The translations under genes and the position numbers were made by a program. Source: a virus. From it: a DNA stretch of 64,000 nucleotides. The stretch covers positions 1-64,000 of the IMG/VR virus record IMGVR_UViG_3300020175_000005, one strand, 5' to 3'. Of the stretch, positions 28,281-63,008 are shown piece after piece (the stretch's first letter is position 1; each line of letters opens with the position of its first letter). A model generated the notes under the pieces. That model saw nothing but the letters and a program-made list of their open reading frames with translations, had not been told where the DNA came from and did no database searches.

Positions 28281-28377
28281 TGGAGATGGGGAGGGAATCG
28301 AACCCTGCTTGAACACTCTGCTTCATCCGCCTGCCCTGGATTTAACGAAACAGCATAGCACACCTTGCCAGCCCATC
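28281..28377 (-). ncRNA. tRNA-like RNA with aberrant, extended anticodon arm
   Basis: GATGGG/CCCATC-T-CCA acceptor; T-arm AGGG-TTCGATT-CCCT; D-like hairpin TGGCA/TGCTA; 9-bp CTGTTTCGT/ATGAAGCAG arm. Confidence 0.7.
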
Positions 28378-28388
28378 AGTTGTATTTA

Positions 28389-28472: not shown

Positions 28473-28560
28473 TGGCAGACAGGGTGGGATTCGAACCCAC
28501 GGAACCTTTCGGTTCGCCGGATTAGTAATCCGGTGCCTTAAGCCTCTCGGCCACCTGTCC
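28473..28560 (-). tRNA. tRNA-Ser (ACT)
   Basis: CCGGA-TTACTAA-TCCGG anticodon arm, long variable arm, G73, CCA. Confidence 0.9.
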
Positions 28561-57110: not shown

Positions 57111-57111
57111 T

Positions 57112-57612
57112 GTGCGACTATTCTGTTGCTAGGTCAGTCGCCAACCCCCACGTGCTTAAATTAAGCCGCTAATGCCATTTCTGGCGCTTTATTTGCGTTT
57201 GCAATTAAAAAGTTTGTTCGCGGTAACGGCGCTTACATCCCGGTAACTCCACTCTTCTATCCTGCCTGTCGATCCTATTTCGACCCCATCATAAACACAC
57301 TATTCAAACCAAAGTAGGAAATCCATACTTCCTGTAATATTATATAATACGATTAGTATCATACAAAACCACAGTAGCCAAAATAACCAAAAGCCTAAAA
57401 ATCTGTACACCTTTTCCATAGGCAAATACTTTTCTAGAAGTGTAGTGATATCCCACACATATCTAAATTGTAGGAACCAACAAAACCATCTTACGTATTT
57501 GTTAGGTGTATTTTCTTTTGTTATCTTAGTCATTATTCCCTAATGTGTTTATGGTGGAGTCGCTGGGTACCGCCCCCAGGTCCAGTTCAGTCGTCAAATT
57601 GCTTCAACGTTA
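57112..57612 (-). ncRNA. ssrA: two-piece (circularly permuted) tmRNA
   Basis: Acceptor piece ...GGACCTGGGGGCGGTACCCAGCGACTCCACCA (CCA 57552-57554) precedes the coding piece GGGGTCGAAATAGGATCGAC (5' end 57287); G3-U70 pair; tag ANANKAPEMALAA* (57161-57202). Confidence 0.95.
57300..57533 (-). CDS. Trp-rich membrane protein inside the tmRNA intervening segment
   Basis: 77-aa ORF, AGGGA RBS, hydrophobic C-terminal half; stop codon lies in the closing stem. Confidence 0.65.
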   Translation of the reverse strand: MTKITKENTPNKYVRWFCWFLQFRYVWDITTLLEKYLPMEKVYRFLGFWLFWLLWFCMILIVLYNITGSMDFLLWFE

Positions 57613-57618
57613 CAATAC

Positions 57619-57626
57619 TATTTATA
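57619..57626 (-). promoter_or_regulatory. T4-like late promoter for the tmRNA
   Basis: TATAAATA just upstream of the acceptor piece; a TTGACA also lies at ~57644-57649. Confidence 0.7.
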
Positions 57627-57660
57627 ACATATGTATTCAGAGTTGTCAAGTATTAAATAA

Positions 57661-57686
57661 AAAAAGGGAGCATTAAGCTCCCCTTT
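57661..57686 (-). terminator. intrinsic terminator
   Basis: AAAGGGGAGC-TTAAT-GCTCCCTTTTT. Confidence 0.8.
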
Positions 57687-57710: not shown

Positions 57711-58103
57711 TTAGAATGCGAATGATGCTGTAAGTGTAATCTCACCACGTTCTTCTGCTTCTAAGTCATATGATGTCACTGCTTCGATTGTAAGATCGTC
57801 ACGTAGTGCATATGAACCACCAAACTCTAGTACTGGAAGATGATCGAATTCGTCATCCATTGTAAAATCATTTGTGTTATCCCATACTGACAATTTAGTG
57901 CCTGTTGTTAGCTCTAGGCCGTCAACCTGTGGTACCACAAATGTTAGCTCTGGGTTGATTGTGATAATTGATGTATCAGCATCTACTTTACGTTCTGCTT
58001 TTACTTCTGTTTCTAGTGAGAAACCATTACCCAATTGTGTTTCAGCTTGTGCTGTGCCAGCCAAAAGTGTCGCTACAACTGTAGCTGCGAAAATATTTTT
58101 CAT
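57711..58103 (-). CDS. outer-membrane beta-barrel/porin-like protein
   Basis: Sec signal peptide (AQA cleavage), alternating beta-strands, C-terminal Phe (LTASFAF). Confidence 0.75.
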   Translation of the reverse strand: MKNIFAATVVATLLAGTAQAETQLGNGFSLETEVKAERKVDADTSIITINPELTFVVPQVDGLELTTGTKLSVWDNTNDFTMDDEFDHLPVLEFGGSYALRDDLTIEAVTSYDLEAEERGEITLTASFAF

Positions 58104-58432: not shown

Positions 58433-58506
58433 AAACACACTAACCTCAATCCTTTCGGGATCTATGTTCTGCAAAACTTCCCATTGCAGTGGGACATAGT
58501 GTGCTT
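58433..58506 (-). ncRNA. stem-enclosed pseudoknotted RNA element
   Basis: AAGCACACTA/TAGTGTGTTT closing stem; internal CCCA/TGGG + CTGCAA/TTGCAG pseudoknot. Confidence 0.55.
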
Positions 58507-62840: not shown

Positions 62841-63008
62841 AAACTACTTACTAGATGCGCCCTCAGTATCTCCAATCTCTCCGCACGGCCTTATTGACAT
62901 TGCCGCTCTAGTTCGACTGAAACTAGTAAAACTTGACATCTAAGCCTAACAGTTTTAGAGTTTTTAGCTGATCAACGCCTCTACACGGACGTATCTAGTA
63001 AGTAGTTT
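62841..63008 (-). ncRNA. 168-nt RNA enclosed by a long terminal stem
   Basis: AAACTACTTACTAGAT-A-CGTCC ... GGGCG-C-ATCTAGTAAGTAGTTT. Confidence 0.6.

Follow-up and report, generated by a model that had tools for sequence, protein, structure and literature searches.

A selected small gene in the intervening segment of a permuted phage tmRNA gene, and similar nested genes in related marine phages

Can the segment that is removed from the precursor of a permuted tmRNA house a protein gene, and how would such a gene be expressed? The question is raised by a locus in the window (the whole 64,000-nt stretch of DNA analysed, part of a 98.5-kb IMG/VR virus record estimated to be 27% complete), where an earlier note had placed a 77-aa reading frame, here called ORF77, between the two pieces of a tmRNA gene. 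The permuted two-piece tmRNA of Alphaproteobacteria goes back to Keiler, Shapiro and Williams (2000), as cited in PMC9004378 and PMC3985003, and the two-piece form has been described before as common among marine phages (PMC9004378). The intervening segment (IVS) between the pieces has hitherto been treated as a short non-coding spacer.

The boundaries of the gene are supported by Rfam. Full-length matches were obtained to RF01849 (alpha_tmRNA; 57111-57653, 108.1 bits against a gathering threshold of 50) and to RF04321 (tmRNA_permuted; 57161-57613, 95.4 bits against 47), and in both alignments the ORF77 region is an insertion between CCA and the 5' GGGG. The tmRNA is missing from the ARAGORN calls on the window, which comprise 18 tRNAs. 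All features of the tmRNA and of ORF77 lie on the minus strand (Table 1). The gene runs from acceptor piece to IVS to coding piece, and the CCA is encoded. The 5' side of the IVS reads ...CGACTCCACCA, with the CCA at 57554-57552, and the 3' side begins GGGGTCGAAATAGG..., with G1 at 57287. The gap of 264 nt, the frame with its 7 Trp residues and the AGGGA box were all recovered as the earlier note had described them, as was the stem that includes the ORF77 stop codon, which counts 13 pairs, one of them G-U, and has undergone compensatory changes in relatives. In the acceptor stem GGGGUCG pairs with CGACUCC-ACCA, position 3 being a G:U pair (G3:U70). The tag frame starts at a GCA resume codon and has a hydrophobic Ala-Ala end, followed by the stop; tags akin to it recur in all relatives.

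Table 1. Features of the permuted tmRNA unit and of the nested ORF77 in the window
Feature	Positions	Strand	Basis or remarks
Intrinsic terminator of the upstream OMP-like gene	57662..57686	-	Stem of 10 pairs, then a T run
Promoter of the tmRNA unit (predicted)	57619..57649	-	TTGACA (57649-57644), 17-nt spacer, TATAAATA (57626-57619)
tmRNA acceptor piece: T-arm, 3' acceptor strand CGACUCC, ACCA	57552..57613	-	RF04321 and RF01849 alignments
IVS, 264 nt, absent from mature two-piece tmRNA	57288..57551	-	Sequence and Rfam
Clamp helix, 5' arm, beginning within the CCA	57541..57553	-	Conserved, fixed register, covariation
Shine-Dalgarno-like AGGGA, directly 3' of the 5' arm	57537..57541	-	Purine-rich box, same place in all nested relatives
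ORF77, 77 aa, two-helix, hydrophobic, membrane-like	57300..57533	-	TAG stop at 57302-57300
Clamp helix, 3' arm, holding the ORF77 stop, ending 2 nt before G1	57290..57302	-	Covariation between third stop base and 5' arm
tmRNA coding piece: 5' acceptor strand GGGGUCG with G3:U70, tag frame, 3' helix	57111..57287	-	Rfam
Tag reading frame	57161..57202	-	ANANKAPEMALAA + TAA; Rfam alignment, relatives

The terminator found 5' of the unit probably isolates it from transcription upstream. The TATAAATA element fits both a sigma-70 -10 box and a T4-type late motif, and plausibly serves as promoter; the cultured phage Melnitz and the majority of nested relatives show a similar motif in the same place, directly 5' of the acceptor piece. 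Only 18 nt separate the CCA from the ATG of ORF77. As this leaves no room for a promoter, ORF77 would have to ride on the tmRNA transcript.

Homologues of ORF77 fall into 28 protein clusters (48-94% identity, 77-109 aa), whose alignment features 11 invariant residues, variable termini and indels that keep the frame. A search for homologue loci returned 74 viral loci; ORF77 is readable in 71 of them, and its frame is intact in all 72 readable loci once the window is included. Among 12 distinct nested sequences the median NG86 dN/dS is ~0.07, with dS ranging from 0.2 to 2.4. Variable sites in the nested clade are distributed 24/8/55 over the three codon positions, and the other two frames of the nested sequences are interrupted by 4-7 stops. 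In all nested loci a Shine-Dalgarno-like purine box is located 3-6 nt 5' of an ATG or GTG. Judged by these substitution patterns, ORF77 truly codes for a protein and is, in its nested position, subject to purifying selection. Frame disruption and the lack of a coding signature were looked for and not encountered, in line with the nested gene postulated by the earlier note.

In the AlphaFold model, computed on the alignment, the protein consists of two helices (residues 12-36 and 39-76, mean pLDDT 72), the second including a run of ~20 hydrophobic residues. No Pfam family matched ORF77 at E values up to 1, that of the 23S rRNA IVS protein (S23p) included. The PHROGs collection gave only a sub-threshold match to a family of unknown function (E = 0.082), the ESM Atlas no lead, a tblastn search of isolate phage genomes no hit, and no second copy of ORF77 is present in the 27%-complete record. 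A holin or another lysis membrane protein was considered as a possible identity for ORF77, and the neighbourhoods of its homologues are mixed in this respect. In one locus (L024) the homologue follows genes for a Hydrolase_2 cell-wall hydrolase and a DUF3310 protein, in another (L031) it is preceded by a gene that looks, by eye, lysozyme-like. Other homologues lie among genes resembling, again by eye, radical-SAM and other genes.

Two readings would deprive the nesting of its meaning. ORF77 might be a chance or relic frame in a long, structured, non-coding IVS, a notion encouraged by the good folding of the segment (z = -6.45) and by the lack of matches to known protein families. Yet the z-score is dominated by the closing helix and the acceptor strands, and was not counted as independent evidence, while the low dN/dS with its third-position bias, the intact frames with in-frame indels, and the occurrence of free-standing homologues in tight operons make this reading scarcely credible. 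Alternatively, the insertion might have inactivated the tmRNA, in which case the flanking halves would be a decaying pseudogene and only the ORF would matter. The silence of ARAGORN is compatible with such a scenario, and so is the fact that no SmpB gene was found in the 98.5-kb record, a fragment that at 27% completeness provides no evidence of absence. However, the scores of both Rfam models exceed the gathering thresholds by a wide margin, and the position of the promoter is conserved. An open tag ending in LAA, IAA or AAA and the G3:U70 pair have been retained in every nested locus, and position 5 of the acceptor stem has changed by compensation (U-A in the window, G-C in most loci, C-G in L019), also in nested loci whose ORF dS nears saturation. 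The tmRNA halves around ORF77 are thus apparently functional-looking, and decay of the tmRNA is very unlikely.

The architecture of the 74 loci was assessed by a motif scan of all of them, and by Rfam in 20. ORF77 is nested in the window and in 23 loci. The IVS measures 261-268 nt in the window, L002-L018, L020, L021 and L023, and 389 nt in L025-L027, in which a second ORF of 41 aa is coupled to ORF77 via a GTGA overlap (L025, 1882-2007). In three loci ORF77 is found immediately upstream of a compact tmRNA, the IVS being a 53-nt hairpin in L019 and L022 and a segment of 140 nt in L024. In these loci ORF77 is joined to a DUF3310 gene by ATGA coupling, and the IVS of L024 (2471-2608) hosts a different, 45-aa Trp-rich ORF, members of whose family reside also in L084 and L112. 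The loci with the 41-aa and 45-aa cargos, L025 and L024, belong to close relatives of the window's phage. Most homologues (48 loci, L028-L075) are free-standing, with no tmRNA within 2 kb, and belong to tightly overlapping operons. In the ORF77 tree the free copies are separated from a single clade (100/100) that unites the nested with the adjacent copies. The inside of this clade is a polytomy, and the tree does not give the order of nesting and un-nesting. In the un-nested L019 the stop codon is followed by a sequence resembling the 3' arm, which hints at a nested ancestor and is too short to be given weight. The gene upstream of the tmRNA in the window (57711-58103, minus strand) encodes a 130-aa protein, similar to outer-membrane beta-barrels, with a signal peptide, a C-terminal Phe and no Pfam match. 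The same gene is located downstream of the tmRNA in L019 and L024, and since it changes side the neighbourhood must have been rearranged.

The helix that clamps the IVS varies in a coordinated manner. In nested loci position 11 is C-G, U-G (as in the window) or U-A, and L010, in which the stop codon is TAA, carries the partner U in the 5' arm; position 6 is either A-U or G-C. The comparison was extended to 101 unique phage IVSs of at least 29 nt, anchored at CCA and G1. In-register pairing involves 83% of 15 positions, versus 31-47% when the arms are shifted by 1-2 nt, and many positions show 3-6 pair types. Over 13 positions the paired fraction is 0.886 in IVSs shorter than 100 nt (n = 52) and 0.899 in those of at least 130 nt (n = 35). 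The arms of plain hairpins such as L079 (38 nt) are the same as in the window, and in two contigs of run X1 the ORF is replaced, between the window's arms, by only 5 or 27 other letters; the latter contigs, with short sides of 29 and 36 letters, are a weak indication of relatives carrying the plain hairpin. Because pairing is equal in short, cargo-free and in long IVSs, the clamp is best seen as the ancestral closing or processing hairpin of the phage tmRNA IVS, with cargo lodged in its apical loop, and not as an adaptation to the ORF. The interpretation given in the earlier note thus holds for the nested, selected gene, and fails for the role assigned to the stem, the protection of a mini-mRNA: the helix is as well formed where there is no cargo, and recurs in front of two tRNA genes.

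The leader of tRNA-Trp (58433-58506, minus strand) is bracketed by the helix TAAGCACACTA ... TAGTGTGTTTTTA, nearly the clamp sequence of the tmRNA, which encloses structured non-coding cargo and ends 9 nt before the 5' end of the tRNA. A 16-bp helix, AAACTACTTACTAGAT / ATCTAGTAAGTAGTTT (62841-63008, minus strand), similarly brackets ~130 nt and ends 3 nt before tRNA-Thr, and is similar to the arms clamping the IVS in other phage tmRNA genes, for example L089. Such recurrence points to a processing or closing element of general use in the pre-tRNAs of the window's phage.

Whether nesting is peculiar to ORF77 was assessed by a scan of IMG/VR with the acceptor motif, hence blind to ORF77, which returned at least 120 loci and 108 unique IVSs of 4-266 nt. 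Among the matches listed, 22 of these 108 unique phage permuted tmRNA genes (~1 in 5) have an IVS of at least 130 nt, and 21 of the 22 contain a spanning sense ORF, defined as one of 25 aa or more whose end may lie in the tmRNA; 14 of the 21 are provided with a Shine-Dalgarno-like box. In the 36 unique IVSs of at least 100 nt among the matches listed, the longest sense ORF covers 71% of the segment, against 30% for antisense (p = 5.9e-7, Wilcoxon) and 45% for dinucleotide shuffles (p = 4.9e-6). All 7 IVSs of at least 199 nt among the matches listed are filled to at least 85% (shuffle P <=0.01). Spanning ORFs in IVSs of 60-130 nt mostly lack a Shine-Dalgarno box, may reflect chance read-through, and were left uncounted unless conserved, as in the L113/L104/L184 family. 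Three other cargo families, as well as the coupled 41-aa ORF, exhibit dN/dS values of 0.02-0.34 and third-position bias; in a fourth family (L162/L173) dS is saturated. A Pfam search gave no lead for six other cargo ORFs, and no endonuclease. The 75-aa cargo of L125 has a homologue family of its own, which repeats the pattern of ORF77: of 80 viral loci, 72 are free, 5 adjacent and upstream of a compact tmRNA, and 3 nested. One nested member, L318, has tmRNA halves 83-84% identical to those of the window, shares the GGGGTCG/CGACTCC stem, and has clamp arms 84-100% identical to the window's, around an unrelated cargo.

A cellular control gave a different picture. The acceptor motif, searched in 185,579 species genomes, identified at least 120 loci and 111 measurable IVSs, whose length has a median of ~28 nt and reaches 139 nt at most. 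Among the matches listed, no IVS of these 111 genes is filled by a sense ORF. The segment is therefore normally short and non-coding in cells, as the earlier note had assumed. The only long IVS (139 nt) among the cellular matches listed, L308, is also the best match to the tmRNA halves of the window, and may come from a misbinned phage contig.

Cargo is found also in a cultured phage. In Methylophilales phage Melnitz (Kyanoviridae; MZ577095; L316) the tmRNA is annotated at 453 nt, and its IVS of 142 nt is closed by the same clamp. This IVS contains a GGAG box and a 54-aa ORF missing from the annotation (L316, ~960-1140), whose last ~40 nt overlap the tmRNA; L136 has a conserved version of this ORF, longer by an in-frame insertion of 24 nt. 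Such endings are frequent. Of 39 spanning cargo ORFs among the matches listed, 14 stop inside the IVS and 25 inside the 5' strand of the tmRNA. Of these 25, 14 terminate at the TAG that is fixed within the conserved GAAATAGG, 13 nt into the tmRNA, and the other 11 further inside. About half of the credible cargo ORFs, meaning those of long IVSs and of conserved families, stop inside mature tmRNA; for the L024/L084/L112 family and the Melnitz/L136 ORF the stop is reached 13-42 nt into it. Taken at the level of sequence, the IVS loop is a common small-gene slot in related marine phages, Melnitz included. Searches of the full-text literature, whose coverage leaves out most subscription-journal papers, brought up no account of protein-coding cargo in permuted tmRNA IVSs, and the gene slot appears to be previously undescribed.

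We favour, with a probability of about 0.8, the following explanation. ORF77 would be a gene for a small membrane protein, hosted in the hairpin loop of the IVS of a functional permuted tmRNA. Transcription would start at the tmRNA promoter and yield a pre-tmRNA that includes the gene, and ribosomes would enter at the gene's own Shine-Dalgarno site, the template being the precursor or processing intermediates still carrying the ORF. Cleavage by RNase P at G1 and 3' maturation at the CCA would then separate ORF77 from the mature tmRNA pieces. RNase P and tRNase Z have been named in a review as the probable enzymes for permuted precursors (PMC3985003). The loop would tolerate insertions because it is discarded, and would have repeatedly become, in marine T4-like phages, a slot for small genes between conserved tmRNA halves.

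RNA-library evidence, made of contigs and not of raw reads, touches on these steps. One contig only (X1, 497 nt) spans acceptor piece, IVS and coding piece; it includes promoter and terminator as well, and may be DNA carry-over or read-through. Contigs in X5, X8 and X10 cover, within the unit, only the region of the coding piece, those in X5 and X10 also the upstream flank, and are derived from relatives, since their flanks differ. A single record of a relative in X8 ends ~10 nt inside the 5' end of the tmRNA, beside adapter, and is suggestive of an RNA end.

Which RNA is translated is where further readings diverge. The template of ORF77 could be the precursor, an acceptor-plus-IVS intermediate left after RNase P cleavage, or the free IVS. 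The earlier note had opted for the last, regarding the excised IVS as a discrete, stem-protected mini-mRNA, released 1:1 with tmRNA and serving as main template. This is possible, and the less likely course. The stop codon of ORF77 falls within the IVS in every nested locus, so that the excised RNA would be a complete cistron, and so do the stops of the 14 spanning ORFs mentioned above; with its 5' end paired in the helix and 2 nt overhanging at the 3' end, such an RNA would moreover presumably be a poor substrate for exonucleases. However, a helix equally present in cargo-free IVSs has not evolved to protect an mRNA, and its 3' arm must be melted by the terminating ribosome. The ORFs of the L024/L084/L112 family and of Melnitz/L136 would lose the stop codon upon RNase P cleavage, and the IVS would be degraded, not released, if 3' maturation of the acceptor piece were exonucleolytic. 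The closest studied analogue, the 23S IVS of Coxiella, is rapidly degraded after excision (PMC4990558). As a general template, the free IVS is argued against both by a helix older than the cargo and by the 25 of 39 spanning ORFs that end in the tmRNA. For cargo ORFs that stop in mature tmRNA the cut at G1 would remove the stop, and the unprocessed precursor would therefore be their mRNA. Since a ribosome terminating at the ORF77 stop would unwind the 3' arm, translation and processing of one molecule likely alternate. One may go further, and imagine that cargo translation competes with tmRNA maturation, ribosomes melting the clamp or acceptor helix and delaying RNase P, and cut ORFs becoming non-stop messages subject to trans-translation. 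In every nested locus the stop of ORF77 is placed in the clamp arm 13 nt ahead of G1, and covariation keeps both stop and pairing. This speaks for such coupling, as do the many ORFs ending in the 5' strand of the tmRNA, above all at the GAAATAGG TAG. Yet the argument is purely structural, one frame in three ends at that TAG by default, and many read-through ORFs of short IVSs are probably due to chance; the coupling is accordingly held doubtful. The most elaborate version is equally speculative: the IVS would be a dedicated slot wired to maturation, in which the precursor is the mRNA, RNase P switches it off, non-stop products are tagged by the released tmRNA, and the tmRNA halves act as homology arms for cargo swaps between co-infecting phages.

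The arrangement proposed for ORF77, translation from the precursor or its intermediates, has partial counterparts in known systems. mRNAs lie between tRNAs in the tRNA punctuation of mitochondrial transcripts, in the tRNA-tufB operon of E. coli and in the T4 tRNA cluster. As in these, the mRNA of ORF77 would lie between sites of tRNA-type 3' and 5' processing, under a promoter that also serves stable RNAs. Here, in contrast, both marks belong to one tRNA-like domain, and the mRNA is inside the RNA gene because the tmRNA gene is circularly permuted. ORF-bearing IVSs of 23S rRNA, found among others in Leptospira, provide a second parallel. In Coxiella burnetii (S23p; PMC4990558) an ORF is likewise contained in a helix-closed segment that is cut from a stable RNA without re-ligation, leaving the mature RNA as pieces held together by base pairing. 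That IVS is excised by RNase III at a 23S helix, whereas the cuts flanking the phage segment would be of the tRNA type. The Coxiella ORF is decaying and apparently untranslated (PMC4990558), unlike the phage cargo ORFs, which are diverse and under purifying selection. A 23S IVS protein was discarded as an identity for ORF77 on the Pfam result given above.

Protein genes in a removable part of a tmRNA gene are known in another form. Homing-endonuclease genes occur in 36 of 883 intron-form tmRNA genes, and are listed in the intron form only (PMC11915505). The phage insertion differs in that it sits in the permuted IVS and not in the T-loop, entails no splicing or ligation, and carries no endonuclease. 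A group I intron with a homing endonuclease was rejected for the window, where no Rfam intron match and no Pfam domain in ORF77 were detected. With the two-piece tmRNAs of Alphaproteobacteria and marine phages, such as Melnitz ssrA (PMC9004378), the locus shares piece order, G3:U70, encoded CCA and an alanine-rich tag; it departs from them in having an IVS of 264 nt with a selected protein gene. The only unusual contents of permuted IVSs reported in the 2025 tmRNA database paper are a tRNA-Ala gene and a repetitive element (PMC11915505), and the Melnitz paper makes no mention of an ORF in the IVS (PMC9004378).

Introns and 23S rRNA IVSs were already known as removable parts of stable RNA genes that house genes of their own, and the permuted tmRNA IVS may be added to them. 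For the evolution of phage genomes this amounts to a new kind of neutral landing site between conserved arms. For RNA biology it offers a natural case in which one transcript would be both mRNA and tRNA-like processing substrate, and a cultured phage-host pair exists for direct testing. For annotation, such tmRNAs escape ARAGORN, and the genes nested in them go unannotated, as in cultured Melnitz. Among the tRNAs that ARAGORN did call in the window are a 97-nt tRNA-Phe with anticodon AAA (28282-28378, minus strand), which is below the Rfam gathering score, and a tRNA-Ser with anticodon ACT (28473-28560, minus strand); both anticodons are unusual, and the two may be miscalls or variant tRNAs.
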